In this document: piece after piece, positions 22,334 through 38,051 of the stretch
Numbering within the stretch: the stretch's first letter is position 1
Layout of the letters: the number at the start of each line of letters is the position of its first letter
DNA from: an uncultured Bdellovibrionales bacterium
GTDB taxonomy: Bacteria > Patescibacteriota > Minisyncoccia > Moranbacterales > UBA1568
Reading direction: 5' to 3'
NCBI GenBank assembly: GCA_964530135.1
Contig: CAZGXN010000005.1
Coordinates: forward strand, 2,269-66,268
DNA: 64,000 bases
Translations under genes and position numbers: made by a program
Notes under the pieces: generated by a model
The model's input: the letters and a program-made list of their open reading frames with translations, nothing else
The model's database searches: none
What the model was told of the DNA's origin: nothing

Positions 22334-24802
22334 ATGCGTCCACGCACCGACAATCGGTCCGGAAAAACCTCTCCGGCCCCGCTCGAGAAACACTTTAGAG
22401 AAATCGTCGTGGGAAGCGGTCGGTCCCAAGAACCGTACATCATCGCCTTTCACTACGCGAGTGACAATGTCTCAAGCTCTCCTCTGGGGACGCTTTTCGG
22501 CTTTTTCGAAGTCGAGATTCATGACCAAGATGCCGCCTACATCGTGAATTTCCTTGCCTCCGTCGCAAAAAAAGAATACTTTGCCAACCCCCGCCGCAGC
22601 GCTATTGAGAGCTTTGAGACCACTCTACACAAGATCAATGTTGCCCTCGCTGAAATTGTCAAACACGGCAATATCTCCTGGCTGGGCCACCTCCATGGAG
22701 CGCTCGGGATAACGACTCAGGACACACTCCATTTTTCGGTTACCGGTGAGGGAGAAATATACCTCGCGCGTGAAGATGACCTCCATTCCATCAGTACTGG
22801 TCTTGCTGAAAATGAAGGCGAACCCCACCCCCTCAAAACCTTTACCGAAGTCGCGAGCGGAAAGCTCTATGATGGTGATCTCGTATTCACCCTTTCCCCC
22901 TCGGTCTGGTCACTCTTTTCTCCTGATGACCTCCGCCGAAGCCTGAACCGTCTCGGGCCAGCAGGTTTTGAACAGTTTCTCCGAACCGCACTCGTCAATG
23001 AGCTTTCCACAGCGGCCATCACGCTGATTACTTGCATGGCTCCCGTCGAATTGAAAAAGTCTGCGTCCCTTCCGCCCAAACCCGCCGCCAATCTTACGAA
23101 TGTTTGGAGCGACACACCCTTCCTCGCTGCCCGACAATCAAAGACTGGAGCGACCAAAACAAAAAATGTAGCCGAAACCAAGGATGAAAGCAATGATCCA
23201 ATTCGTCAGACCGCAGGACATATCTATATTCAAGCCTCACCCGATGAAGCCTTTGAAACGACTGACAACCCCTGGAGAGAACGGTGGGAAATGTTCTCGC
23301 ACGGGTTTGAAGAACAGGTACGCTCCTGGAACACTGCTCTCCGAAAGTCCAGCCGGCGCATCGGTAAAGAAAGCGCACTCGCCTTCGCCTTCCTCAGTAC
23401 CTGGACCGGACAGGTCGGTCGGACACTGAATCGTCGCATCCGGAATCTCAAACGCACCTGGAATGATAGGCGTCAGAAAAAGGCGCAAGAAAAAGAACAG
23501 GCAGCGCTCCTGAAGGTGACTGAGAAAATGCCACAAGTAAGACCTGCGGCAGAGCCAAGAGAGGAGACGATCCCTTCCGTCGCTTCTACGATCGCACATT
23601 CTGATCCAACCCCACCTCCGCGCGAGGAAACAAATACTTTCCCACCGTCATCTGAACGCGTCCGGCGGTTTTTCCAACGCGAATCGCGCCAGGAAGTAAC
23701 TTTTGGTACTGAAGCTAAACAACTGTTGGCTCAATGGAATGAGCGAATCATGCAGCTTAAATCTTCCATACTTCCTACCTTAGAACAGACTCGTCGTCAA
23801 TTAAAACATCTAACACTCTGGACAGAGCGATACCCTGCTGCCCTGCCCAGCCGCTTCCGAGAGTTTTGGGATGCCCGCTCTCCGAAAGAGCGGTGGCTGT
23901 GCATCGGCCTGGTTGTGGCTCTCATCATCGGGACACTCGCCTCTCTGAACTGGTCGGACAAAAAAGTATCGCCTGTGGAAACCATCGTAACCTCGCCCGT
24001 CCCAGAGTCCTCCGCGCCTGTCTTTCCGCCAGCGAACGAACCCAAGGCCACACTCCTCTCGACAAACCGATCTATCCTCTCGCTCGCGGACGGCATGCGC
24101 GCGATCGCTTTCGCCTCGGTCAACAACCTCCCATTCCTCGTGACTGATCGGGGTATCGTGAATCTCGCCACGCAGGAATCCATTGCTACCCCAGAACCGA
24201 TTCGTCTTGCAACAGCGATGGACGATTTGGATTTACTCTTCCTCCTTGGGACTTCCAATCGACTGTACAATTACAGTGTCACAACCAAAAAATTCAGTGA
24301 AAACACTCTCCCCCTTCCGGCCGGAACAAACATAGACGCCCTCGGCGCCTACCTCACCTATCTCTACACTCTCGATCAAGGGGCAGGCACTCTGCACCGT
24401 TTCCCGCGAGCTGAGGGCGGTTTCGACACACCTACTCGCTGGCTGAAAGAAACGGTGGCCCTCACCGAGGGTGGCAATATGGCCGTCTTTGAAAATGTCG
24501 CTCTCACCCTCCAGAACAAAGAACCCGCCCTTTACAGCCGCGGCATCCGAAGCACCGGCACTTTCGCTGGCACGACTACTTTGGTCACGACTGATGCTCT
24601 CACTTTTGACCAGAAGACTGGTGATCTCCTCGTTCTCGATCGAGCTCAGAAACGCATCATCCGCTGGTCAAATACTGGCACGCTCCTCGCCCAATACTAT
24701 CAAGAGTCATGGGGCACCGCTGAAACCTTCACGCTCTCACCCGACGGCACTGAACTCCTTGTCTCCGACCAAACTTCCGTCACTGCCTGGCCGATTCAGT
24801 AA
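22334..24802 (+). CDS. large (822 aa) hypothetical protein with cytoplasmic N-domain, central TM helix and C-terminal extracytoplasmic domain
   Basis: Long ORF with TM helix WLCIGLVVALIIGTLASL near residue 515. Basic/Pro-rich linker. No family confidently recognised. Confidence 0.45.
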   Translation: MRPRTDNRSGKTSPAPLEKHFREIVVGSGRSQEPYIIAFHYASDNVSSSPLGTLFGFFEVEIHDQDAAYIVNFLASVAKKEYFANPRRSAIESFETTLHKINVALAEIVKHGNISWLGHLHGALGITTQDTLHFSVTGEGEIYLAREDDLHSISTGLAENEGEPHPLKTFTEVASGKLYDGDLVFTLSPSVWSLFSPDDLRRSLNRLGPAGFEQFLRTALVNELSTAAITLITCMAPVELKKSASLPPKPAANLTNVWSDTPFLAARQSKTGATKTKNVAETKDESNDPIRQTAGHIYIQASPDEAFETTDNPWRERWEMFSHGFEEQVRSWNTALRKSSRRIGKESALAFAFLSTWTGQVGRTLNRRIRNLKRTWNDRRQKKAQEKEQAALLKVTEKMPQVRPAAEPREETIPSVASTIAHSDPTPPPREETNTFPPSSERVRRFFQRESRQEVTFGTEAKQLLAQWNERIMQLKSSILPTLEQTRRQLKHLTLWTERYPAALPSRFREFWDARSPKERWLCIGLVVALIIGTLASLNWSDKKVSPVETIVTSPVPESSAPVFPPANEPKATLLSTNRSILSLADGMRAIAFASVNNLPFLVTDRGIVNLATQESIATPEPIRLATAMDDLDLLFLLGTSNRLYNYSVTTKKFSENTLPLPAGTNIDALGAYLTYLYTLDQGAGTLHRFPRAEGGFDTPTRWLKETVALTEGGNMAVFENVALTLQNKEPALYSRGIRSTGTFAGTTTLVTTDALTFDQKTGDLLVLDRAQKRIIRWSNTGTLLAQYYQESWGTAETFTLSPDGTELLVSDQTSVTAWPIQ

Positions 24803-26363: not shown

Positions 26364-28859
26364 TTACTTCACAACTGCACCTTCAATAAGTTGAATGCGA
26401 GACATAATTTCCTGATTCACGATACGGGCATCACGACCATAGCGCAGCCGTGAGAGCTCTTTGAGAGCGTTCGCAACTTCCTGATCACCCGTTGTTGGTG
26501 GATAGGTCTTCAGGTTAAATGGCTTGGTTAATTCATTGTTTATGAGGAGTCGAGCAAAAGCCTGATAATTATCCACATTGACGATATCGTGCGCCGTGAA
26601 AACTGGAGCAAACTGTTTCTCGAGAAATTCAGCATCCTCGGGGCCAACCCGAAATGCGATGAGTGAACCAACATTTCCGAAGACCGCCTTTGATATTTCT
26701 TCTTTTAATTGTCCGATAAATTGATGCGCGAGGACAAGAACCAGCCGATATTTGCGTGCTTCCGAGAGAATCTGGGCAATCGAGGTCGTCGTAACATTTT
26801 GGAACTCATCCAGGTAAAGATAGAAATCTCGACGTTCTGCCTCTGGCTGATCAACTCGTGAGAGCGCAGCCATGAGAATCTTCCCAACCACTACCATGCC
26901 CAAAAGTCGCGCGTTGATTTCACCGATTTTCCCTTTCGATAGATTTATAAGAACGATTTTCCCCTGGTCCATCAGTTCACGAAAATTCAACGCACTTTCC
27001 TGCTGAGCGATGATGGGACGCATCATATCATTCGAAATGAAAGTCGTCAGTTTTGAGGTAATGTACGGCACCATATTAGCGAGCGCAGCTTCACCGCCAG
27101 CCTTCTCTGCTTCTTTCAGCCAGAAGTCGCGAACAATTGGATTTGTACAGTGCGCCAACTTATACCGACGGAATTCTTCGTCAGCCAACACTTTGGGGAT
27201 CTCCATAAGTGTCGAGCCACTTTCAGGATGCTCCATGATGAGGAGCATGGCGTTACGCATGTATTGCTCAAACATCGGACCACCTGTTGATTTCATATCA
27301 TACAACTGGTCAAAAATACCGATCATTTCATTAATAACAAAGGTCTTTTGCTCGGGGTGCTGGGGATCATATTCCAGCATATTGATACCGATCGGACGAG
27401 CGATATCGGCCGGATCAAACACGATAACATCCTCAGCCCGTTCTTTCGGAATAGCCGTCAAGATATCTTCAATCGCATCACCATGCGGATCGATAAAACA
27501 GAATCCTTTACCCGATCGCGCATCTTGCTTCGCCATCTCCTGTAAATAGTTGGATTTGCCGACACCCGTCTGCCCGACAACATACATATGCCGACGGCGA
27601 TCATTGTCCGTAATACGAATCTCTGTCTGTGTATTTCGGTAGTCATTATAACCGAGAAGAATCCCTTCTTTTGGAATATTGATAGGTGGTGGAGCAGCCC
27701 CTGCTTTCAGCCACTTGATCTTGGGAGTCTCTGTCGTCGAGATAGGGAAATGAAAGAAACTCGCCACTTCGTCCGGTGTGAGAATCATCGCAGCATCCGG
27801 ATCGAAGTTTCGAAAGATATAATGATAAGCAGCTCGCTTCAAAGCAGTACGTTTTTTCACTCGAAAACTATTCACTTCCGGATTTTCAAACTGAGTAAAA
27901 GAGTTCTCCATATGACTCAGAATACTTTCCGCTCGCGCTTTCGTAGCCGCCGAGGCGAGCAATCGAATATTGACCGAAAAAGCCACCTGACTCGCCTTCG
28001 CATCGATTGTCTTCACCAGCTCTTGTTCCTCTGGTGTAAGGACGACCGTTTTCTTTTCCGTGAGTGTCTGTGATTTTGTGTCCTGCTGCAATAAAATCCG
28101 TCCGACACCCTGCAATGTCGATTTTCCAACCAATGATGCAAATGTCTCAGGATGCGCATCTTTTAGACGCTTTCCGGCTTGCATATGCTGGGCGATATGG
28201 CGACTTCCTTGGCGCCAACCAGCCGGCGCAGGAGAGAGGATGATCTGGATCGCCGCTCCTTCCGTCACCGTTTCAAGTTTGGAAAGCGCATTGGATATCT
28301 CATTGAGTGGATCAACGGGGAGATTCTTGTACGTCTTTAGTGGCAATGCATGGCTCGCTGAAAGCTCTAAAATCGATACAGCAGTTTCTCCGGCCGGAGA
28401 AAAAATAGTGTAGTCTGATACCTTTTCAATTGCTGCATGAGGGAAAAAGCTATGGATCTGTTTCTCTACACTCTCACGATAGTGCTTGGGTACCGACAAA
28501 TAAAAGAAAATTTCCTCACTCGAAGAGGGATTGGCAATTTCAAAAATGATATGTGGTGGGTCGAAAAATAAGTGCTTCCACCATGGGAAATGGCGCTTGA
28601 GTGAAGCAAGTGATATCAGCAACTGTTCCATCGCCCGAATTTCCTCACGCCATTCATCGGGGCTATGCGTGGCGCCCTCCGCCGCCTTTTTTTTGCCAAC
28701 TTGGACTATCTCAAGGTCAAGATTGAGCGACTGTGAGACTTCAAAACGCAATAATAAAAACGCTTTCACTAACAGAAAAATACCAGAAACAAGTGCCAAT
28801 GCACCCGAGAGGTAAGCAAGCGGAAGAAGAATCACATTCAAATCAAATTCGGAAGGCAT
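26364..28859 (-). CDS. membrane-anchored P-loop ATPase of the HerA/FtsK/VirB4-VirD4 (type IV secretion / DNA translocase) clade
   Basis: N-terminal TM helix, ~400-aa N-domain, Walker A YVVGQTGVGKSNYL, Walker B FYLYLDEFQNV, then LVLVLAHQF. Architecture resembles VirB4/TraG-like conjugative ATPases. Confidence 0.65.
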   Translation of the reverse strand: MPSEFDLNVILLPLAYLSGALALVSGIFLLVKAFLLLRFEVSQSLNLDLEIVQVGKKKAAEGATHSPDEWREEIRAMEQLLISLASLKRHFPWWKHLFFDPPHIIFEIANPSSSEEIFFYLSVPKHYRESVEKQIHSFFPHAAIEKVSDYTIFSPAGETAVSILELSASHALPLKTYKNLPVDPLNEISNALSKLETVTEGAAIQIILSPAPAGWRQGSRHIAQHMQAGKRLKDAHPETFASLVGKSTLQGVGRILLQQDTKSQTLTEKKTVVLTPEEQELVKTIDAKASQVAFSVNIRLLASAATKARAESILSHMENSFTQFENPEVNSFRVKKRTALKRAAYHYIFRNFDPDAAMILTPDEVASFFHFPISTTETPKIKWLKAGAAPPPINIPKEGILLGYNDYRNTQTEIRITDNDRRRHMYVVGQTGVGKSNYLQEMAKQDARSGKGFCFIDPHGDAIEDILTAIPKERAEDVIVFDPADIARPIGINMLEYDPQHPEQKTFVINEMIGIFDQLYDMKSTGGPMFEQYMRNAMLLIMEHPESGSTLMEIPKVLADEEFRRYKLAHCTNPIVRDFWLKEAEKAGGEAALANMVPYITSKLTTFISNDMMRPIIAQQESALNFRELMDQGKIVLINLSKGKIGEINARLLGMVVVGKILMAALSRVDQPEAERRDFYLYLDEFQNVTTTSIAQILSEARKYRLVLVLAHQFIGQLKEEISKAVFGNVGSLIAFRVGPEDAEFLEKQFAPVFTAHDIVNVDNYQAFARLLINNELTKPFNLKTYPPTTGDQEVANALKELSRLRYGRDARIVNQEIMSRIQLIEGAVVK

Positions 28860-28883: not shown

Positions 28884-29303
28884 CTACTTTCCTTCACTCT
28901 GGATAAGTCCTTTAGCCTTCAGGGCTTCATAGAGTGTGTCCGCAAGCTGATCATGCATCGTATCAAGGACATAGAGATCATTTAGCTTTCTTGCCACATC
29001 GACTGCATGTGCCACTCCTTTGAGTTGAGCAAGTTCCACCAATTGATTCACCTGACTCGTCGCATCCAAGGCCTGTCCCACTTGGCGAACATCAGCCTGG
29101 ACATCTGCTGCCACCGGCACAGACTGAGAGCTCACACTCGACTGAGCGAGGATGGCAGCATACCTTTCCTCGGCCTTTTCGGATAACTGCTCAGCCCCAT
29201 CTTCAAAAGGCTGTCTCACCTTGCCCCCATTCGTCTCTGGTGAAAGGACCACCTCAGTTGGTGTAGTCGCGGCTTCTTTTTTTCGAGAAAAGAATTCCCA
29301 CAT
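28884..29303 (-). CDS. hypothetical acidic protein (139 aa)
   Basis: ORF in the operon, no motifs. Confidence 0.4.
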   Translation of the reverse strand: MWEFFSRKKEAATTPTEVVLSPETNGGKVRQPFEDGAEQLSEKAEERYAAILAQSSVSSQSVPVAADVQADVRQVGQALDATSQVNQLVELAQLKGVAHAVDVARKLNDLYVLDTMHDQLADTLYEALKAKGLIQSEGK

Positions 29304-29308
29304 ATGTC

Positions 29309-29614
29309 TTAGACGGTAACCGCCTTCACATCTTTCTTAAATTGATCCACGATATGCTCGACAAAGGCTTGGTAATGCGGAATGCGCGTCTCGAGAAATT
29401 CTCCCACAGCACTTTCAGTGGGTTCAGACTCAATCAGGGCTTCATAGTCCGTCAAGCCTTGTTCACCAAGCTTTTCCATCGTCTCCATAAATATGCGCTT
29501 CAGAAGGGCTTCCAACATTTTCCCCAAAAGCTCTTGCCGCTTTGGTTCAGACAGACCGGACAACTCCAGTGATTCGGCAAGCTCGGCTTCAATTTTTGAG
29601 TAATCGATATCCAT
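29309..29614 (-). CDS. hypothetical small acidic helical protein (101 aa)
   Basis: ORF in the operon, no motifs. Confidence 0.4.
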   Translation of the reverse strand: MDIDYSKIEAELAESLELSGLSEPKRQELLGKMLEALLKRIFMETMEKLGEQGLTDYEALIESEPTESAVGEFLETRIPHYQAFVEHIVDQFKKDVKAVTV

Positions 29615-29627
29615 ACATGTATTGTAT

Positions 29628-32603
29628 TTAGTCTAACATACGAAAACCTGGAATCTTTTTTCCTTGATGTCCCGCGAGTGCGATCATCCGGATCACATAC
29701 TCTTGAATAGATTCGCCAGATCGAGCCCGAGCGAGCTCGACACCCAAGGCTTTAGCTGAGGCCTTTGAAAATTTTGCCACTTCCTGCATTTGCGAATAAT
29801 GCAGAGGATTCTTCGCCTGGTCATAGCTGAAAAATGGATTCTTTTCGAGAATAGCCCGGTCCGTAAGCACGGTATCGACTTTCAGCTTCACAAATTCCGG
29901 ATGCAGTACTGGATCATAGCGCATATCGGGGATATCCCCTCCTGCTACATCATTCGTTTGAAACAGTTCAATTGAGAGTTTTTTAAAATTTCGAAAAATT
30001 GTTTCCTGATTTTCCTGAGGCAAGCTCTCGATATACTTCACTGTATTGCCATACGGATTGAGGAGCTCCTCAGTAGGGCTAAGTGTAAACATACCTCTAA
30101 TCTCTGCCTTCTCAGAGGGAGAAACAACCGCTGGAATATGGTCGAGTTTCATTGTCCCACGCTCCGGAACACTCTCCCCTCCCAGTGTGCGAAGCGACGC
30201 ATCTGGTGCAGACACACCCGATACAGTGGGGAGTTCAATCGGAACCGTTCCCCGGGCCGTATCAACCATTTGCGTTACCTCCTCGGAAGAGAGAAGGGTG
30301 CCGATATCCAGTTTGGCTCCAGCCTGAATAAGATGCGGGCTGAATTTCCCATTGGTATCCAGGGTGAAGCCCGCTGCTCGAGCCAACTCCGGACTTGATT
30401 CAAGCTTGGTCTGCAGTTTCAGTTCAACCAGTTTTGCAAAGCGTGCTGCAGAACGATCATCCATACCCGCCGCATCTTTAGCTGCTTTCTCAGCCAGCTT
30501 CCAGATACTATCTCCGCGTTTTACCTCATAAGGATCGAGGAGGTGCTTGGTCATCGCAGTACTGGACTCGATCGATGGTGTAATGGGCGCAGTATCTTTT
30601 GGTATTTCGGGCATACTGGAGTGTTCAACACCCTCTCCTGGTAGTACGAGCGTTTCTGAGCCCTTTGGTATTTCTCCAACAGACGAAGTTTCTAGGATTG
30701 CTGGTCCACCCAATCGAACATCCCCGCTCTCAGTGGGCACTCCGGTGGATCCCACAATAGCCTGCGTCTCGTTCGTGCTCCCAGTGATATGTTCATTCAT
30801 GAAATGTGCCACCGCGCCAGAACCAAACACGACGCCAGCCATAATAGCCCCCGACTTTCGATAGAGATTTCCTCGACGGCGAGCACCTTCACCCGAGCGC
30901 GCGCGGAGTGAGGCTTCTTTCAGATATGTTTCCAGGGCCGAAAAATCAACGGTCTTTTTTTCTCCAAGCTTGACAGCAAGCTCATCCGCTTCCAGCGCAT
31001 CAAAAGCAGCCTCATGCTTTGTTTCCACCTGATTACGCTTTCTTTCCCGCAGTTTTTGGGCGACAAAATCTGCTCCACCCTCAAGGGTTACTGCTACCCC
31101 CGCCCCCGCTGCCAATCGCTTCAACGCGATCAGTCCGACAGTGGCTGTCCCAATGCCACCCGTGGCCAGACCGAGTCCGACAGCACCCGCCCCAGCGAGG
31201 CTTGCTCCAAGAAGGTATTTACCCGCCTTTCCTTTAGCGAGTTTATTATATCCAGCACCTAATTTCTCGATACCCAAAATAGCGGTCTCACCGAACACGA
31301 CTGTTCCACCGATCATGAGCTTCACACGGGCTTTCCACACCTCTCCAGATGTTGCCCCACTTTCGGAAGTGAGATTCGGTGCTGTCTCGTTCCAAAGAGT
31401 TCTCATTTTCTCAAGCAGTGGCTGATTCAGCTTGGTGAGGCGCATCTCCTGACGCGTTGCATAGATTCGCTCAGCTTCATCAAATTCGAATTCGCGGATC
31501 AGCGCGGCCAGAGCTGGACGCAACTCTGAGATACGCAGTCCCGAATGTTTCAACTTTTCAATCTCCGCCGATTGCAATGCTCTGACCTTCTCGTCATACC
31601 AGGCCCGATACTTTTCTACCTCCCTATCATCACCGTCCTTATGCGACAGTTTTCGAAAAATCCGTGTGAGATTCTTCCACGCACTCATTTGCGATTCCTC
31701 GACCGCGATAAAGGCTGTCCGTTCGCTTGCAACTTCTTCCCGAAGTTTCGCAATTTGCGCATCCATGTCGGCAGCCGTGATCTCGTTCTCCGGTATCTGG
31801 ACGCCGCTCATCTCGATGAGCCGGACCGTCTCACGGGGCGACTGTTCATTGGCCGGCACTTTCGGACTACCCGCCTCGGCTTCTGGCTCGACAGTTTCCT
31901 TCGGACCAGCAGCTTCTCCTGATGGAGTATCTTTTGTTTCTTGACGAACTTCCGTGCCCGCATCCGAATCAGGAACGCCAGAGCCGCTGCCTTCTGCAAT
32001 GACCCAACCCTCGGCCTGGCCACGCTTCAGAATCTCTGTCCGAGAAATACTCGCAATCGCTGGGTCGCCCTCCTTTGTGATCCGGTAGCCGTTCGGTTTC
32101 TTGGTTATTTCATAGACTAACCCATCCGGATCCTGGTAACGGATTGCCTTGCCCTGCCCGAGACGTGGAAGTGTAAATTTGAACGGCGCCGCTTCAGCCG
32201 AAGACATTTCCTCTGTCGGCCTTGTATCCGGCGTTACTCGAGCCGGGGTTGAGAGTGCTGATTGATCACTCTGCGACAACCCATCAAACGATTGACTCAA
32301 CTCCTTGGCACGCCGAGCATTGTATTTGGTAAACGGAGTCAGAAGATTTCCAGGCGCCACCTGAGTGTCAAGGCTAGCCATATAAGCATCGATTTCGGCC
32401 TGCGATGAACCTTCTGCTTCAGTCGATATGCGAGTCGAGGTGATGGTTGGTTCAGACTGCAACGCATTGGGAGCAACCGTCGTCTCAATATATTTCGGTT
32501 GATCTTTAGCCAACTCTTCCTCCATGAAAGCACGCGCAATCGCATCAAGATCCGGTGGAACTTCCATCCGCCCTTTATCCAAGTTCACTTTTTTTCTCAC
32601 CAT
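29628..32603 (-). CDS. large (991 aa) protein with glycine-zipper membrane segments and a LysM-like peptidoglycan-binding motif
   Basis: Gly/Ala-rich hydrophobic stretch GASLAGAGAVGLGLATGGIGTATVGLIAL. YEVKRGDSIWKLAEKAAKDAAG matches the LysM consensus YxVkxGDtLwxIA. Confidence 0.5.
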   Translation of the reverse strand: MVRKKVNLDKGRMEVPPDLDAIARAFMEEELAKDQPKYIETTVAPNALQSEPTITSTRISTEAEGSSQAEIDAYMASLDTQVAPGNLLTPFTKYNARRAKELSQSFDGLSQSDQSALSTPARVTPDTRPTEEMSSAEAAPFKFTLPRLGQGKAIRYQDPDGLVYEITKKPNGYRITKEGDPAIASISRTEILKRGQAEGWVIAEGSGSGVPDSDAGTEVRQETKDTPSGEAAGPKETVEPEAEAGSPKVPANEQSPRETVRLIEMSGVQIPENEITAADMDAQIAKLREEVASERTAFIAVEESQMSAWKNLTRIFRKLSHKDGDDREVEKYRAWYDEKVRALQSAEIEKLKHSGLRISELRPALAALIREFEFDEAERIYATRQEMRLTKLNQPLLEKMRTLWNETAPNLTSESGATSGEVWKARVKLMIGGTVVFGETAILGIEKLGAGYNKLAKGKAGKYLLGASLAGAGAVGLGLATGGIGTATVGLIALKRLAAGAGVAVTLEGGADFVAQKLRERKRNQVETKHEAAFDALEADELAVKLGEKKTVDFSALETYLKEASLRARSGEGARRRGNLYRKSGAIMAGVVFGSGAVAHFMNEHITGSTNETQAIVGSTGVPTESGDVRLGGPAILETSSVGEIPKGSETLVLPGEGVEHSSMPEIPKDTAPITPSIESSTAMTKHLLDPYEVKRGDSIWKLAEKAAKDAAGMDDRSAARFAKLVELKLQTKLESSPELARAAGFTLDTNGKFSPHLIQAGAKLDIGTLLSSEEVTQMVDTARGTVPIELPTVSGVSAPDASLRTLGGESVPERGTMKLDHIPAVVSPSEKAEIRGMFTLSPTEELLNPYGNTVKYIESLPQENQETIFRNFKKLSIELFQTNDVAGGDIPDMRYDPVLHPEFVKLKVDTVLTDRAILEKNPFFSYDQAKNPLHYSQMQEVAKFSKASAKALGVELARARSGESIQEYVIRMIALAGHQGKKIPGFRMLD

Positions 32604-32610
32604 ACACTCA

Positions 32611-34353
32611 TTATGTGATAACTGTCTCCTTTTGCAAGTCAGCCAGTATGGCTGTGATATCGGCTGGACTGAGATTGACCGGCACGATGAGTTTGATGAC
32701 CGCGGGGAGGTAAAGATTCAGCTGTTCCATAATCTTTTTCCGGCGATCGATATCACTCGCCCCAGCGCGTTTCAAACGTTCATTGAGACCCGCCACAAAT
32801 CGATCCTTGCGATCAAACAACTCTCTCCGCACACGCTGCTGTTCAACCGGATCCAAACGCTCCCATTCCGTTCTCAAAAGAGCACCACTTTCATCTCGTT
32901 CCAACACTTTTCCATCCAAATTGAGAATAGTCGCGACCTGCTCGGCCCGAGTATACTGGTCGGTGCGAAGCTGTCTCCGAAAAAGATCTATCGTATCATA
33001 TACGCCAAACCCCACTGCGCCATTCTCCAATAGGTATCGCGTACTCACTCTCCCCTTATTGATTTCGGTAACTGTAATACGCTGAATGCGCTCTGGATCC
33101 CCTGCCGCAGCCTGTCTTTCCCATATATCACCTGGTTTTGGTTCATACTCGGACATCTCTTGTTCTGGAGCCACTTCTCTCCTGCCACCCGCACTCAAAG
33201 ATATATCCCCGTCGCCCGTCCGATGCCCTTTTTTTTTCGCTTGTGCTCGCGCTCTCACTCGCGATTCTTTCTCTGAAACAATCTGTAAAGTTTCTTTTTC
33301 CCGTTCGGCTAAAATCCGGGCGCCAACGGTTAAGAGTTCCTGATAATCAAAAAATAGTGCTGTGAGGAAACCAGCCGCGCGATCATCCAGCTCACCCACT
33401 TCCGTAACTTGTTTTTTAATCTTTTCCAGTCGTGCCTCAATTGCAGCGCTCCGCCCTGTCAGTGCCAAAACCTGTTTGTACATATTCCCTAACCCGCGCG
33501 CTCGAAGATCAGCCTTGAAACGCGCCTCATCCTTGAACCCACGAAGGGCCTGATCCATTTCTTTCCAGCGCCTCAGTTGATCCCCCACCGTTGCAATTTT
33601 TTCCAGTGGCTTTTCTCGCATCTGTCGCCATACCATCCGCCAATCGTCTTGAGAAGCATTGCTTGGGCCCTGATCCGATATGATCCTGTCATCGAGCGCC
33701 ACTGGGTCAGCTCCAGTATGCTCCGCAGTGCTCGTTGAAGGAGAAATTTCAAACAAAGCTTTTATCGTATCCGGAACTGTGATCTCACCCTGATGTTCCA
33801 AACTCTCAATTGCCTCCTTCACATCAGCGATATCGTTGGAAAATTCGGTATGTATTGCCTCAAGCTGAAGTATCTCTTCGGAAGCTTCACGACGGATATC
33901 GGAGTTTTCGAGATACGGTTCAGCGAGGTTTTTCGCTCGCATCAAACCTTTTTCGACAGCCAACATGAGGCCCTCCTCATCTTCCGCCTGGTAACCGTGT
34001 GCTTCGAGGAACGTACTGAGCTGAGTCAATACCTCAGACTGTTGGACGATATCCCTGAGGAGTTTTTCCATTATTTTTTTTGTGGGGTTTTCAAGAAGCT
34101 CCGCCGAACGGGGATTAGTGAATGTTTCGCGACTTTTGTGAATCCTCTGGCTCGGAACTGGATCTCGAGACATTTCTTGGTTTTCCGATTCTTTTGTCGG
34201 TCCCTCCTGATGCGACCATCTCGTTTTTCTCTGATCAGAAAAATGAGCATCGGGCGCAGCATCTTTTTGCTCACGCACAAACTGCGAGGACAGAGATTCC
34301 CCCGAGACATTTCTTGGTTTGGCAGCAAATGGACCCTCACTCAAAACTGACAT
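32611..34353 (-). CDS. hypothetical soluble charged protein (580 aa), first gene of the operon
   Basis: Highly charged, coiled-coil-like, no TM. No family recognised. Confidence 0.45.
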   Translation of the reverse strand: MSVLSEGPFAAKPRNVSGESLSSQFVREQKDAAPDAHFSDQRKTRWSHQEGPTKESENQEMSRDPVPSQRIHKSRETFTNPRSAELLENPTKKIMEKLLRDIVQQSEVLTQLSTFLEAHGYQAEDEEGLMLAVEKGLMRAKNLAEPYLENSDIRREASEEILQLEAIHTEFSNDIADVKEAIESLEHQGEITVPDTIKALFEISPSTSTAEHTGADPVALDDRIISDQGPSNASQDDWRMVWRQMREKPLEKIATVGDQLRRWKEMDQALRGFKDEARFKADLRARGLGNMYKQVLALTGRSAAIEARLEKIKKQVTEVGELDDRAAGFLTALFFDYQELLTVGARILAEREKETLQIVSEKESRVRARAQAKKKGHRTGDGDISLSAGGRREVAPEQEMSEYEPKPGDIWERQAAAGDPERIQRITVTEINKGRVSTRYLLENGAVGFGVYDTIDLFRRQLRTDQYTRAEQVATILNLDGKVLERDESGALLRTEWERLDPVEQQRVRRELFDRKDRFVAGLNERLKRAGASDIDRRKKIMEQLNLYLPAVIKLIVPVNLSPADITAILADLQKETVIT

Positions 34354-34440: not shown

Positions 34441-36069
34441 ATGCTAACGCCTACCCTATCTGAAGAAAAAAAGTGGACCGCACTCGTGGCGCCTTACATC
34501 CTTTTTTCCATTCTTGTTCTCGCACTCTTTGTCCGCATCTATCATCTCGATTCACTTCCGGCTGGACTATACCCAGATGAGGCAACCAATGGCACCGATG
34601 CACTCCTTGCCAATGAGACCGGTAATTACCGACTCTTCTACACAAATAACTACGGCCGCGAAGGTCTTTTCATCAATCTCCAGGCACTCGCCATCAAATA
34701 CTTCGGGAATACTATCCCTGTCTTAAAGGCCTGGTCAGTCTTTTTTGGGACATTCGCCATTCTCGGACTCTATCTCCTCGCACGCGAGCTCTATGCACGG
34801 CGTGTGTATGCGATGACCGCTGCTTTCATGTTGGCAACCTCCTACTGGGCGATTAATTTTTCGCGCATTGGTTTTAGGGCTATCATGACGACCTTCCTCC
34901 TCACCTTTTGTTTTTACTTTTTCTTTCGTGGTTTCCGAACCAATAAACTACGTGATTTCCTAATTGCTGGCCTCTTTCTCGGCATTGGACTGCATACCTA
35001 TGTCGCATTTCGACTCGCACCACTTATTGTGATTGCTCTCCTCCCCGCTCTCTTCCTCACTTATGAGCGTTTCCTTGCGCGCTATTGGAAGCACGCCCTC
35101 GCCTTCATACTTGGTGCATGTATCACCGCTGCCCCCATGATCTATGATTTTTATATCAACCCAGATCATTTCTCTTCTCGGACCGGAGCAGTTTCAATCT
35201 TCTCCCCAGAAATTAATAAAGGAGATTTTTGGGGGACTTTCGGTAAGACTTTTGGCCTCTCGCTCGTCAAATACAATTTCTGGGGCGATCAAAACTGGCG
35301 CCATAACTACCCGCCCTACCCTATACTCGATCCAGTGTCCGGTGCGCTCTTTCTCGCCGGCTTCCTCTTTCTCATTTGGGAAACAATCAAACTTCTTGGG
35401 TTACGTCTCCGAGACAAACTCCGCGATGAGCGGCTCATTCGGAATTGGTTCCTCCTCTCAGCCTTCTTCGTAATGCTGATGCCTGAATTCCTCACTGAGG
35501 AAGGGTTGCCCCATGCACTCCGAGCGATTGGCACCCAGATGCCCGTCTACCTTATCGCCATCCTCCCTATCACCTGGATCGTCCGCCACGCACAGCGTTC
35601 ACTCGCCGGTGGACGATTTGCGCTCTATTCACTTCTCGCCTTTGGTTTGTTTTGTGGGGCAGCCTTCAATCTGACCAAATATTTTGTTTTCTTTGATCGC
35701 AATCTCAATCAGCACGGAGCGTTTAACCAAAACTTTCGGAATATGGCTGTCTATGCGATGAGCCTACCAAATGACACGCTGAAATATATTGTTACCAATG
35801 GAGGTGGACGGATGCTCGAAGATGGACTCCCCGTTTCAGCCCAACCCATCAAATTCCTCACTGCCGGAAAAATTGAAAACCTCGTATACCTGACACCGGA
35901 AACAACCGTGCGTACTCAAAACAGCGTTATTATTCTCATGAACCACGATGATGCACTCATCGGACGAATAAAAAAAATCACCCCCACTGTCCGAGTTGAA
36001 CACATTGATCTCTTCCCTGGCACTCAGAGTGGATTTACTGTGCTCCGTTTCCCTTCATCCCACCAATAG
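34441..36069 (+). CDS. GT-C membrane glycosyltransferase (ArnT/PMT-like, family 39/83)
   Basis: Multi-pass membrane protein with a DEATNG-type first-loop acidic motif (YPDEATNG). Confidence 0.7.
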   Translation: MLTPTLSEEKKWTALVAPYILFSILVLALFVRIYHLDSLPAGLYPDEATNGTDALLANETGNYRLFYTNNYGREGLFINLQALAIKYFGNTIPVLKAWSVFFGTFAILGLYLLARELYARRVYAMTAAFMLATSYWAINFSRIGFRAIMTTFLLTFCFYFFFRGFRTNKLRDFLIAGLFLGIGLHTYVAFRLAPLIVIALLPALFLTYERFLARYWKHALAFILGACITAAPMIYDFYINPDHFSSRTGAVSIFSPEINKGDFWGTFGKTFGLSLVKYNFWGDQNWRHNYPPYPILDPVSGALFLAGFLFLIWETIKLLGLRLRDKLRDERLIRNWFLLSAFFVMLMPEFLTEEGLPHALRAIGTQMPVYLIAILPITWIVRHAQRSLAGGRFALYSLLAFGLFCGAAFNLTKYFVFFDRNLNQHGAFNQNFRNMAVYAMSLPNDTLKYIVTNGGGRMLEDGLPVSAQPIKFLTAGKIENLVYLTPETTVRTQNSVIILMNHDDALIGRIKKITPTVRVEHIDLFPGTQSGFTVLRFPSSHQ

Positions 36070-36107: not shown

Positions 36108-38051
36108 ATGGAAAATCTGAAACGCCTCGCTCCACAGTTTCTCGCGCTTATGATGGTCGCTTTTTTTGCTGTTTCGATCCTTGTTTCTTATCAGGAATCA
36201 ACGACCATGGATGAACGAGCGCATATTCCGGCCGGGTACAGCTATGTGAAGTACCAGGATATGCGTATCAATCCCGAACACCCGCCCCTCCTGAAAGACT
36301 TGGCTGGTCTCGCTCTTCTTCCTCTTGATCCAAAAATGCCGAAAAGTGATCCCCTCTGGGAAAGTGGCGACTGGCTCGATGCGGCAAAATTTCCTGAAGG
36401 GCCGGCGCGTACCTGGGGGCTTGCCCAGTGGGAATTCGGGGACAAAATCCTCCATCTGAATGGGAATGATGCCAACCTTGTTACCTTCTGGTCGCGATTC
36501 CCCTTTATCCTGGTTTCTCTTTTACTGGGGTTCTTTATTTTTCGCTGGACCAAAGAGCTTGCCGGAGCTGTTGCTGCACTCTTTGCGGCACTCCTCTATT
36601 TCTTTGATCCAAATATTATCGGCCACAGTCACTATGTAACCACTGATATTGGTATTGCTGCCTTTATCTTCTTTGCTTTTTACTACTTTGTCCGATTCCT
36701 CAAAGATCCTAGTCGGAAAAACATTCTTTGGGCAGGTATCTTTCTCGGTCTCGCTCAGCTCACAAAATTCTCGGCCGTATTACTCTTTCCTATATTCGGT
36801 ATGTTTGCGGTCCTGTATGGTCTCACGGTAACGGTTGAATCCATTCCGGGATCGTGGAAATCTCGTCTCAAAAATGCCTTTGTCTACGGACTCAAATACA
36901 TGGGCAGCGTCGTTGTTTGCTTCATAGCCATCTGGATTCTCTATTTCTTCAATACCGCTCAGATGCCTGGTGAAGTCATCGCGGAAATTGCGCGTGCCCA
37001 ATTCCCCAACGATCGAGCCATCGGTCAGATCGCAGAGACAACTATTGTTACCCTGAGTCAATTCACTCTATCAAAGCCTTTGGCTGAATATTTTCTCGGT
37101 GTCTTCATGGTATTCGCCCGAGTGGCCGGAGGAAACACTTTCTATTTTCTTGGTGAAGTATCCAAACAGGCATCCCAACTCTACTTCCCAATCGTTTTCG
37201 TTCTCAAGGAAACGCTCCCAATGCTCTTTCTCCTCATCACAACAACGCTGTACACACTCTATCGAATCGGCCAGGGACTGATGCAACGCAATGGGCAGAG
37301 CTTCCTCACACTCATCATGACATCATTCCGAGAGCGTATCACCCAATACATGATGGTTTTCTTCATCCTCTTCTATAGCTATGTCAGCATCACCGGAAAT
37401 CTCAACATAGGATACCGACACCTCTTCCCAATCCTTCCTTTCTTGTATGTGCTGGTTGCTAAAACTGTCTTTGATATCCTCAAGCGTGAGCGTGAACACC
37501 CGACCACTTACCGAACACTTCGTATTCTCCTGGCTTGCGCCACCTTTTCGATTATTGCTATTCCCATACTCTCTTATCCGAGCTATCTCTCATACTTCAA
37601 TGCTATCGGCGGCGGACATGAGCAGGGCTACCGCTATGTGACTGATTCTAACTATGACTGGGGTCAGGATCTTCGGAGATTGCGAGACTTTGTCGACAAC
37701 TACAATCAGTGTGTCGAGAGCGGCTTTTCGACCCCTTTTTGTGAGCCATTCCGAACTATGATGACTCCCAAAGATCAGCCAATCAATACTATTCGGGTTG
37801 ACTACTTTGGTGGTTCCAGTGGACAGTGGCAACTCGGAGACAAATATAAAGGGTGGCATTCCCAACTCCCACCAGAGCCAGGGTGGTATGGTCTCTCTAT
37901 CGGCTTTCTCCAAGAAAACTGGTACAAAACACTCGCACCTGGTGAACGTTCATACGATTACCTTCGCCATCGAACACCCGATTTCCGGGTCGGCGATTCT
38001 CTCTTCGTATACTATATCCACCCCGAAGAAATCTCTCCTGAAGAAAAATAA
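36108..38051 (+). CDS. GT-C membrane glycosyltransferase (PMT/ArnT-like), second tandem copy
   Basis: Multi-pass membrane protein with an early DERAHIPAGY loop motif and a large C-terminal soluble domain. Confidence 0.65.
   Translation: MENLKRLAPQFLALMMVAFFAVSILVSYQESTTMDERAHIPAGYSYVKYQDMRINPEHPPLLKDLAGLALLPLDPKMPKSDPLWESGDWLDAAKFPEGPARTWGLAQWEFGDKILHLNGNDANLVTFWSRFPFILVSLLLGFFIFRWTKELAGAVAALFAALLYFFDPNIIGHSHYVTTDIGIAAFIFFAFYYFVRFLKDPSRKNILWAGIFLGLAQLTKFSAVLLFPIFGMFAVLYGLTVTVESIPGSWKSRLKNAFVYGLKYMGSVVVCFIAIWILYFFNTAQMPGEVIAEIARAQFPNDRAIGQIAETTIVTLSQFTLSKPLAEYFLGVFMVFARVAGGNTFYFLGEVSKQASQLYFPIVFVLKETLPMLFLLITTTLYTLYRIGQGLMQRNGQSFLTLIMTSFRERITQYMMVFFILFYSYVSITGNLNIGYRHLFPILPFLYVLVAKTVFDILKREREHPTTYRTLRILLACATFSIIAIPILSYPSYLSYFNAIGGGHEQGYRYVTDSNYDWGQDLRRLRDFVDNYNQCVESGFSTPFCEPFRTMMTPKDQPINTIRVDYFGGSSGQWQLGDKYKGWHSQLPPEPGWYGLSIGFLQENWYKTLAPGERSYDYLRHRTPDFRVGDSLFVYYIHPEEISPEEK

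Follow-up and report, generated by a model that had tools for sequence, protein, structure and literature searches.

The window examined here is a stretch of 64,000 nucleotides of contig CAZGXN010000005.1 (assembly GCA_964530135.1), and this report concerns one of its open reading frames (ORFs), which encodes a predicted protein of 991 residues, referred to below as the target. Judged from its sequence relatives, the target is a member of a real, conserved and fast-evolving gene family that is specific to Moranbacteria, ultra-small bacteria of the candidate phyla radiation (CPR). On the same grounds it falls in no described family: parts of known kinds (a coiled coil, glycine zippers and a LysM-like element) are newly arranged, and are joined by one apparently new domain. 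We tentatively propose that the target is a resident membrane- and wall-spanning partner, whether scaffold, stator or conduit, of an orphan ATPase of the coupling-protein type encoded in the same operon, and it is more likely to be part of a machine than its cargo. A component spanning membrane and wall is favoured because the position in the operon is conserved and because the charge pattern follows the positive-inside rule. An earlier note, made from the letters of the window, had suggested either a substrate or a conduit component, and these two observations favour the latter.

The target is the second of five co-directional genes, which encode a 580-residue protein, the target, a DUF5663 protein, a 139-residue protein and the ATPase (Table 1). 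They are separated by gaps of 7, 13, 5 and 24 nucleotides, with no terminator-like site between the five genes on the minus strand. The earlier note placed the target next to the ATPase. Two small genes in fact intervene, but the grouping stands, as all five genes point the same way and the gaps from the target to the ATPase are only 5–24 nucleotides. All 15 of the related loci whose sequence continues beyond the target show an identical gene order, including loci in which the target is only 25–34% identical or is detectable only with a hidden Markov model (HMM). Among those related loci that extend far enough, the flanks are also conserved: a divergent pair of PMT/PMT_2 genes borders one end, and the other end has RmuC and a convergent gene for a transmembrane (TM) protein of about 800 residues. 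Across the loci, identity to the proteins of the window is 71–90% for the ATPase, 38–77% for DUF5663 and 37–62% for the 139-residue protein, while the target is 25–63% identical or undetectable. The difference between ATPase and target fits a conserved motor whose partner is exposed or serves as an adaptor. In the flanks of the related loci, about 10 kb in length, the gene calls included no virB4, pilin or relaxase.

The sequence matches indicate that the ATPase is a divergent, membrane-anchored member of the type IV coupling protein (T4CP) / HerA-FtsK kind. Pfam assigns it TrwB_AAD_bind (35.7 bits, cut-off 20.5), TraG-D_C (25.9 bits, cut-off 22) and T4SS-DNA_transf (20.4 bits, cut-off 20.1), as well as DUF87, and precomputed annotations add DUF8128. 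The closest solved structures are TrwB and DotL. The NCBIfam matches are of the TraD/VirD4 type and miss the equivalog cut-offs, and it is for this reason that the coupling protein is called divergent. At least 4,987 homologues are found at E<=1e-10. A published survey of Patescibacteria counted 5,713 VirD4-like T4CP homologues, of which just 148 lie near virB4, and its authors suggested that these homologues have taken on other functions by exaptation (PMC12102498). The ATPase of the window also matches PHROG family phrog_5156, of unknown function (E 9e-90, residues 102–821), and close relatives of the ATPase are therefore present in phage or prophage collections.

The membrane-type segments of the target were analysed using 93 aligned relatives. 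Residues 462–493 form a run of 32 consecutive positions at which 0% of the residues are charged, and 32 residues is also the median length of the longest uncharged run in the first Gly-rich region of the relatives. The run is flanked by basic residues at K461 (98% basic), K494 (98%) and R495 (100%). Glycine is found at G481 and G482, in the middle of the stretch, in 86% and 67% of the relatives, and at G489 in 83%. A further charge-free stretch of 11 residues follows at 496–506, containing the conserved G501 and closed by E507 (88% acidic). A third segment, 583–602, is bounded by R581-K582 (about 90% basic) and E603, and contains A585xxxG589xxxG593xG595, in which residue 585 is small in 98% of the relatives and the three glycines are kept in 93, 90 and 85%. 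The glycine-zipper pattern of Kim et al. 2005 is reportedly (G,A,S)xxxGxxxG or GxxxGxxx(G,S,T). It is present in A585xxxG589xxxG593; the i, i+4 ladder of small residues A473-G477-G481-T485-G489 is found as well, as is A497-G501-T505. No Pfam glycine-zipper family (Gly-zipper_Omp, Gly-zipper_YMGG, Gly-zipper_OmpA or Rick_17kDa_Anti) matched at E<=1. The zipper spacing seen in the earlier note is thus real, and conserved beyond chance among the 93 relatives. That note had also allowed that the Gly-rich region might be a disordered linker. Stretches that are free of charge, bear conserved basic flanks and keep their glycines do not look like a linker, and on this evidence the segments are distinct from one.

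The best Kyte-Doolittle hydrophobicity for a 19-residue window (KD19) in the first region (462–506) is 1.63, with a Wimley-White octanol sum of +1.45, and 83% of the relatives have a KD19 >= 1.6 there. For the last segment (583–602) the values are 1.44 and +0.37, and the relatives never reach 1.6. By comparison, the N-terminal TM of the ATPase has a KD19 of 2.37 and an octanol sum of -8.7. In the more divergent relatives the Gly-rich versions are more hydrophobic. The Gly-rich segments are likely to be embedded in the membrane; given their marginal hydrophobicity, insertion is likely rather than proven. The earlier description of membrane-inserting GxxxG helices is therefore borne out for the zipper pattern and the basic flanks, and weakened by hydrophobicity that is just marginal.

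Between the two Gly-rich regions lies a charged segment, 507–582, that contains RERKRN and, further on, RRRGNLYRK. AlphaFold2 predicts helices at 486–524, 531–545 and 555–594, with predicted local distance difference test (pLDDT) values of 75–87 over 511–570, falling to 64 at 571–580. Clusters of K and R are thus found before 462, at 494–495, at 516–522 and at 574–582, and beyond 602 the sequence is acidic, poor in K and R and rich in S, T and P. In membrane proteins basic flanks mark the cytoplasmic side (the positive-inside rule), and by this rule the basic clusters place the N-terminal 460 or so residues and the 507–582 helix in the cytoplasm. We infer that 507–582 is a cytoplasmic loop joining a helical hairpin to the last hydrophobic segment, and that the linker 603–685 is extracytoplasmic. 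The pattern as a whole suggests a protein with its N-terminus inside and its C-terminus outside.

The predicted external part includes a LysM-like domain. Residues 692–706 of the target carry the signature Y-x-V-K-x-G-D-S-I-W-K-[LI]-A, which fits positions 1–15 of the 43 positions of the Pfam LysM profile (PF01476) and also the repeats of B. subtilis LytE. The score in the whole target is 14.1 bits, against a gathering score of 20.9 bits. The C-terminal fragment scores 17.1 bits over the same positions, and a 91-residue excerpt scores 21.4 bits, yet again over positions 1–15 alone. The match is found at E<=1 in 9 of 31 relatives. Run against PDB sequences, a family profile retrieves the three LytE LysM repeats (E 1.5e-4) and SafA (E 0.52), over the β1-α1 part only.

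A structural model of the C-terminal part, made from 31 sequences, has a mean pLDDT of 84.7 and values of 91–96 over residues 690–779. It contains β1 (692–693), α1 (700–709), an inserted helix (716–736), α2 (738–743), a pseudo-EF-hand-like loop with two bridges (747–758), β2 (764–765) and an extra helix (773–784). In the model, the order of elements is the β-α-α-β of LysM if 716–736 and 748–755 are counted as insertions. Unlike LysM, therefore, the target would have a helix of about 23 residues inserted between α1 and α2 and a loop of about 8 residues inserted between α2 and β2, the latter adjoining what we take to be the place where LysM binds sugar. When residues 713–735 and 748–755 were deleted in silico, the tail (PELARAAGF followed later by HLIQAGAKLDIG) aligned to α2-β2, and the spliced target matched LysM over positions 1–42 with 25.8 bits. 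The spliced family consensus scored 21.2 bits (positions 1–40) and a spliced distant member 15.4 bits (positions 2–41), whereas 10 controls with shuffled or reversed tails scored 17.6–18.9 bits over positions 1–16 only. This amounts to moderate evidence for a full LysM unit, as the sites of the cuts were selected visually out of three trials. Distant relatives no longer have the GD[ST] signature, which is replaced, for example, by YTVTTADGKKGLWGIL, and a Foldseek search of the PDB with the C-terminal model, in which the domain has a pLDDT above 90, returned no LysM structure among its matches. Residues 686–790 are best described as a LysM-derived or LysM-like element, non-canonical and with putative wall binding. 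The LysM consensus reported in the earlier note accordingly holds for the β1-α1 half, but the second half appears only after two deletions, the native score is below threshold, and Foldseek found no LysM.

The loop at 746–758 (FTLDTNGKFSPHL, 30330–30368 on the minus strand) was also considered as an EF-hand. It gives matches to calmodulin and centrin (E 0.006–0.8) that align T747 to L758. The canonical EF-hand loop runs over 12 residues, of which the first is Asp and the last Glu; here these two calcium-ligand positions are Thr and Leu, and the assignment was rejected.

The C-terminal domain is predicted to be entirely α-helical. It has the signature NPLHxSQM...GES..Y..R, with near-invariant N932-P933-L934-H935-x-x-Q938-M939, G954, E964, Y969 and R972, and a conserved PGFRM at the C-terminus of the protein. 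No match was found in Pfam, in PDB sequences, in PDB folds (Foldseek) or in viral folds, and with the confident model nothing in the PDB or among viral structures came below E 0.07. It thus appears to be an undescribed domain.

The best-conserved part of the target lies ahead of the membrane segments. Among close homologues, 36 of the 37 invariant columns lie between residues 284 and 404 (from I284 to W404), the remaining one being G449. They fall in a long-helix domain that is predicted to form helices at 277–315, 323–353 and 358–412; most blocks of 10 residues have pLDDT values of 72–91, with dips to 57–67 around 311–330. The domain is predicted to be cytoplasmic, and is a candidate docking surface. 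Nearer the N-terminus is a small module, also predicted to be cytoplasmic, with the motif FxxPRLGK..RYQ..DGxVYEI.KKPGGYRITK...GW. The model has strands over 153–186 and a helix at 188–198, with pLDDT values of 82–88 (141–180) and 73–88 (181–200). This module of about 60 residues, ending in (E/K)GW, is single in the target and present in two or more copies in some homologues, and other insertable modules (for example GLSVGEVWS...) are seen in the N-terminal regions of homologues; those noted for either feature are P0014, P0015, P0018 and P0020. The upstream 580-residue protein has a motif similar to these N-terminal modules.

Table 1. Positions in the window of the target, its parts and the neighbouring genes.
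Feature	Residues of target	Position	Strand	Basis or remark
Whole target ORF, 991 residues, ATG start		29628..32603	minus	Stop codon 29628-29630
Small module, four strands and a helix	140-202	31998..32186	minus	pLDDT, conservation, HMM
Long-helix (coiled-coil-like) domain	276-415	31359..31778	minus	Invariant columns, model, HMM
Gly/Ala-rich charge-free region	462-506	31086..31220	minus	93 relatives aligned; KD19
Charged K/R-rich helical segment	507-582	30858..31085	minus	Model, basic fractions
Third charge-free segment	583-602	30798..30857	minus	Conservation, KD19, Wimley-White
S/T/P/E-rich, K/R-poor disordered linker	603-685	30549..30797	minus	Composition; pLDDT below 50 for 588-679
LysM-like domain with two insertions	686-790	30234..30548	minus	HMM, AlphaFold2 model
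All-alpha C-terminal domain	839-991	29631..30089	minus	Conservation; pLDDT mostly above 90
First operon gene, 580-residue acidic protein, no known domain		32611..34353	minus	Length and sequence variable between genomes
DUF5663 protein, 101 residues, acidic		29309..29614	minus	PF18908, E 1.8e-6; always directly downstream of target
139-residue acidic protein, no known domain		28884..29303	minus	Position conserved
831-residue membrane-anchored P-loop ATPase		26364..28859	minus	DUF8128, DUF87, TrwB_AAD_bind and TraG-D_C; strong N-terminal TM
Convergent 822-residue protein, one strong TM (519-541), no known domain		22334..24802	plus	Next to ATPase, conserved

The 991-residue ORF described in the earlier note is present at 29628–32603, but on the minus strand; a reading of the plus strand was excluded, its translation being riddled with stops. 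The three peptides quoted there are all found in the target, GASLAGAGAVGLGLATGGIGTATVGLIAL at residues 465–493, AIMAGVVFGSGAVAHF at 585–600 and YEVKRGDSIWKLAEKAAKDAAG at 692–713. A public protein with 100% identity to the target starts at Met13 and has 979 residues. The choice of start codon is ambiguous (32567–32603 on the minus strand), neither ATG having a strong Shine-Dalgarno sequence at the canonical spacing. The 12-residue extension of the longer form resembles extensions in six homologues, and since these keep an extension of similar kind, the long start is plausible on sequence grounds. Inspection of the sequence gave no sign of a hydrophobic signal sequence at the N-terminus. The net charge of the target is -17 and several stretches are disordered, in agreement with the earlier description of the rest of the protein as long, acidic and of low complexity, but that description misses the conserved modelled domains at 140–202, 277–410, 680–790 and 839–991.

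A word-indexed search identified 19 homologues of the target at 43–55% identity, and all those with names are annotated as "hypothetical protein" from Candidatus Moraniibacteriota. A profile of the close homologues, searched against 1.84 billion cluster representatives, matched 147 proteins (117 below 1e-10 and 54 below 1e-30), and the distant members with names, at about 20% identity, are Moranbacteria as well. A scan of GTDB species genomes (alignment A1) found nine loci, all of the Moranbacteria type. Every named match is thus from Moranbacteria or Moraniibacteriota, a lineage of the episymbiont-type CPR, in agreement with the restriction to episymbiotic lineages that the earlier note had proposed to look for. 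Some of the metagenome-assembled genomes (MAGs) of the GTDB scan that carry the locus bear the title "Bdellovibrionales". Four third-party MAG loci titled "uncultured Bdellovibrionales" (L008, L010, L011 and L012) are likewise of the Moranbacteria type; the ATPase is 80–90% identical in three of them, and L010 ends inside the target. These four labels are probably wrong.

Five sub-profiles of the target were mapped onto all 158 collected proteins. The long-helix domain was found in 130 of these, the Gly-rich region (420–605) in 120, the C-terminal domain (835–991) in 100, the LysM-like region (685–790) in 58, and the 140–202 module in 31, sometimes twice. Short proteins with the C-terminal domain alone have the appearance of contig-end fragments, not of stand-alone versions. 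With the whole target, Pfam, NCBIfam and PHROGs gave just the sub-threshold LysM match and a trace of YneA (LysM-type); a sequence-profile search of the PDB with the full family gave LytE only (E 0.68), and Foldseek with the full-length model found only generic helical bundles in the PDB (best E 0.27).

Several further features of the locus were noted. The PMT/PMT_2-type genes (GT-C, protein O-mannosyltransferase-like) are at 34441–36069 and 36108–38051 on the plus strand, divergent from the operon, and in the related loci whose flank reaches far enough a pair in the same position is 49–85% identical. It is a speculative idea that the S/T/P/E-rich linkers of the target at 603–685 and 792–830, both predicted to be external, are substrates for O-glycosylation. 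The convergent 822-residue protein, which is 32–61% identical in those related loci whose sequence covers it, is a possible additional component. Paralogy of the target with this protein or with the upstream 580-residue protein was rejected (hhalign probabilities of 0.1% and 4%, respectively). In the more distant genomes of L015 (4437–9182) and L016 (6860–9157), DUF5663 is preceded by a gene for a protein of 1581 and 765 residues, respectively, and these proteins are matched only through the HMM of the Gly-rich region (E 5e-11 and 3e-9). The size of the L015 protein, close to 580 + 991 residues, suggests a gene fusion or fission. One MAG (SSEF01, Bin_68_2) has two complete copies of the locus on different contigs (L006 and L007), each running from the 580-residue upstream gene through to the convergent 822-residue gene, and their versions of the target share 49% and 51% identity with that of the window; either the bin mixes strains or the locus is truly duplicated. 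A search based on DUF5663 reached close relatives only, and a literature search found no publication on DUF5663 or DUF8128.

On the basis of these observations, the following arrangement may be envisaged for the target as a resident partner of the ATPase. The N-terminal 460 or so residues would be cytoplasmic, consisting of acidic disordered stretches, the β/α module and the long-helix domain. Residues 462–506 would form a Gly/Ala-zipper helical hairpin in the membrane with both ends in the cytoplasm (K461 at one end, K494-R495 at the other), after which the charged helix would lead back to the membrane and the AxxxGxxxGxG segment at 583–602 would cross it from inside to outside as a TM helix. 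Outside would then lie the C-terminal 390 or so residues, made up of a spacer rich in S, T, P and E, the degenerate LysM-like domain with its two insertions, and the new all-alpha domain. The protein would oligomerise through its glycine zippers, the conserved cytoplasmic helices would dock the ATPase, the two small acidic proteins, or both, and the ectodomain would contact the wall or something past it.

There are a number of points that weigh against this proposal. The target segments are just marginally hydrophobic (KD19 1.63 and 1.44, octanol sums above 0), the AlphaFold2 pLDDT is below 50 across 430–507, leaving the geometry of the hairpin unmodelled, and the invariant K494-R495 pair, which separates one charge-free stretch from another, does not sit easily with a simple topology; the pair could lie at the membrane interface or line an oligomeric pore. 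The LysM-like domain is non-canonical and its wall binding putative. Pfam, NCBIfam and PHROGs show no homology to known subunits of type IV secretion systems (T4SS), and specifically the Pfam and NCBIfam profiles, like the profile search of the PDB, give no match to VirB1, B3, B6, B8, B10, PrgK, TcpH or ConG. Finally, effectors can also be encoded in one operon with secretion ATPases.

This last point leads to an alternative in which the target is itself the cargo, a membrane-inserting effector secreted or translocated by the ATPase, with a hairpin that stays soluble in the producer and inserts into a recipient (host) membrane, in the manner of the pore domains of colicins and pyocins, the T6SS effector Tde1 or phage tape measure proteins. 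Hydrophobicity below the level of classical TM segments, long amphipathic helices on either side of the hairpin, and rapid evolution relative to the ATPase would all suit such a protein, and the lineage is presumed to depend on hosts. The best Foldseek matches of the full-length model, none of them significant, are helical bundles, namely the Bcl-2 family protein MCL-1 (E 0.27, probability 0.51) and the α-pore-forming toxins AhlB/SmhB (E 2–4). Glycine zippers drive the membrane translocation of Tde1, and are common to tape measure proteins (PMC10240207). However, the best-conserved part of the target is the helix domain ahead of the hairpin, which would be odd for a fast-evolving effector, and the basic residues obey the positive-inside rule as in a resident membrane protein. 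The gene occupies a single fixed chromosomal position, long-syntenic and among housekeeping genes; Pfam and NCBIfam reveal neither a toxin or enzymatic domain nor an immunity-like gene, and there is no PHROG or tape-measure match. We therefore regard cargo as unlikely, although it is the main rival of the proposal. A phage tape measure protein was rejected, as no PHROG family matched at E<=0.1 and the gene is bordered by housekeeping and envelope genes in conserved synteny.

A second alternative keeps the target in the envelope but removes any mechanistic tie to translocation: it would be a scaffold for envelope biogenesis or division beside an ATPase with an FtsK/HerA-like role, possibly a wall organiser acting with the adjacent PMT-type glycosyltransferases and the FtsQ-like gene. 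Envelope genes do surround the locus in all genomes (two PMT/PMT_2, POTRA_1 (FtsQ-like), Glycos_transf_4 (MraY-like) and GT4), the predicted external linkers rich in S, T and P would suit O-glycosylation, and many wall-associated scaffolds are similarly built as a coiled coil, a TM segment and an ectodomain that resembles wall-binding domains. On the other hand, the PMT genes are transcribed divergently, while the target and the ATPase belong to one closely packed unit of five genes. The ATPase fits coupling proteins better than FtsK (TrwB_AAD_bind 6e-9, against 0.099 for FtsK_SpoIIIE), and Pfam, NCBIfam and PDB profiles show no similarity of the target to known divisome or elongasome proteins. 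A scaffold of this kind seems rather improbable. It could also be argued that the features themselves are superficial, the Gly/Ala region being flexible or buried within a coiled-coil protein that is soluble in the cytoplasm, and the likeness to LysM, with no wall binding behind it, being due to chance or vestigial. The target does miss strict hydrophobicity cut-offs; the native LysM HMM match is partial and below threshold, GD[ST] is lost in distant relatives, and no LysM structure was retrieved. This account has difficulty with three charge-free stretches whose basic flanks are invariant and whose glycines are conserved in 93 relatives, and with a hydrophobicity that rises in the more divergent relatives. 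Nor does it explain why the spliced sequence aligns to LysM over its full length when 10/10 shuffled or reversed controls do not, or why the order of elements in the AlphaFold2 model agrees with β-α-α-β. We consider it very improbable.

A resident partner of the ATPase can be compared with several known systems. Like the partners of T4CPs (DotL-DotM-DotN-IcmSW, or TraD with TraM), the target is encoded together with a membrane-anchored TrwB/VirD4-like ATPase and small acidic proteins; unlike in those systems, the ATPase of the target locus carries a DUF8128 N-terminal region. Like the wall-spanning subunits of monoderm T4SSs (the PrgK/TraG-type VirB1 with LysM), it is predicted to have a large cytoplasmic part, membrane segments and a LysM-like ectodomain directed to the wall, but it has no sequence or fold similarity to known T4SS subunits and lacks a hydrolase domain. 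With VacA, the colicin/pyocin hairpin, Tde1 and tape measure proteins it shares (G/A/S)xxxGxxxG ladders in helices that carry no charge and are weakly hydrophobic, and a predicted hairpin of about 32 residues with a central GG and long flanking helices. Many large helical tape measure proteins also carry a wall-directed module, as the target is predicted to do. It differs in giving no match to colicin or tape-measure profiles, and, in contrast to phage and toxin-immunity systems, its gene is chromosomal, confined to a single locus and syntenic, and has the basic pattern of a resident membrane protein.

In its most far-reaching form, the proposal would be that the five-gene unit is an undescribed envelope translocation machine of Moranbacteria that is independent of VirB4. 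The zippers of the target would form a channel, with K494-R495 as a charged ring in its lumen above the hexameric coupling-protein-like motor. The ectodomains, split-LysM and NPLHxSQM, would anchor this channel in the wall or extend to the surface of the host, so that DNA or protein could be moved between episymbiont and host. In this full form the idea is a long shot.

Thousands of coupling-protein-like ATPases in Patescibacteria are not located beside type IV secretion genes (PMC12102498). For orphan ATPases of this kind in one large lineage, the locus described here supplies a fixed set of partners, namely DUF5663, a protein of about 140 residues, the target, and a variable upstream protein. 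If the target is just a lineage-specific scaffold, the gain is an improved annotation of a "hypothetical protein". If it is indeed a part that spans membrane and wall, it would represent a new accessory family, together with two new domains, the split LysM-like domain and the NPLHxSQM α-domain.

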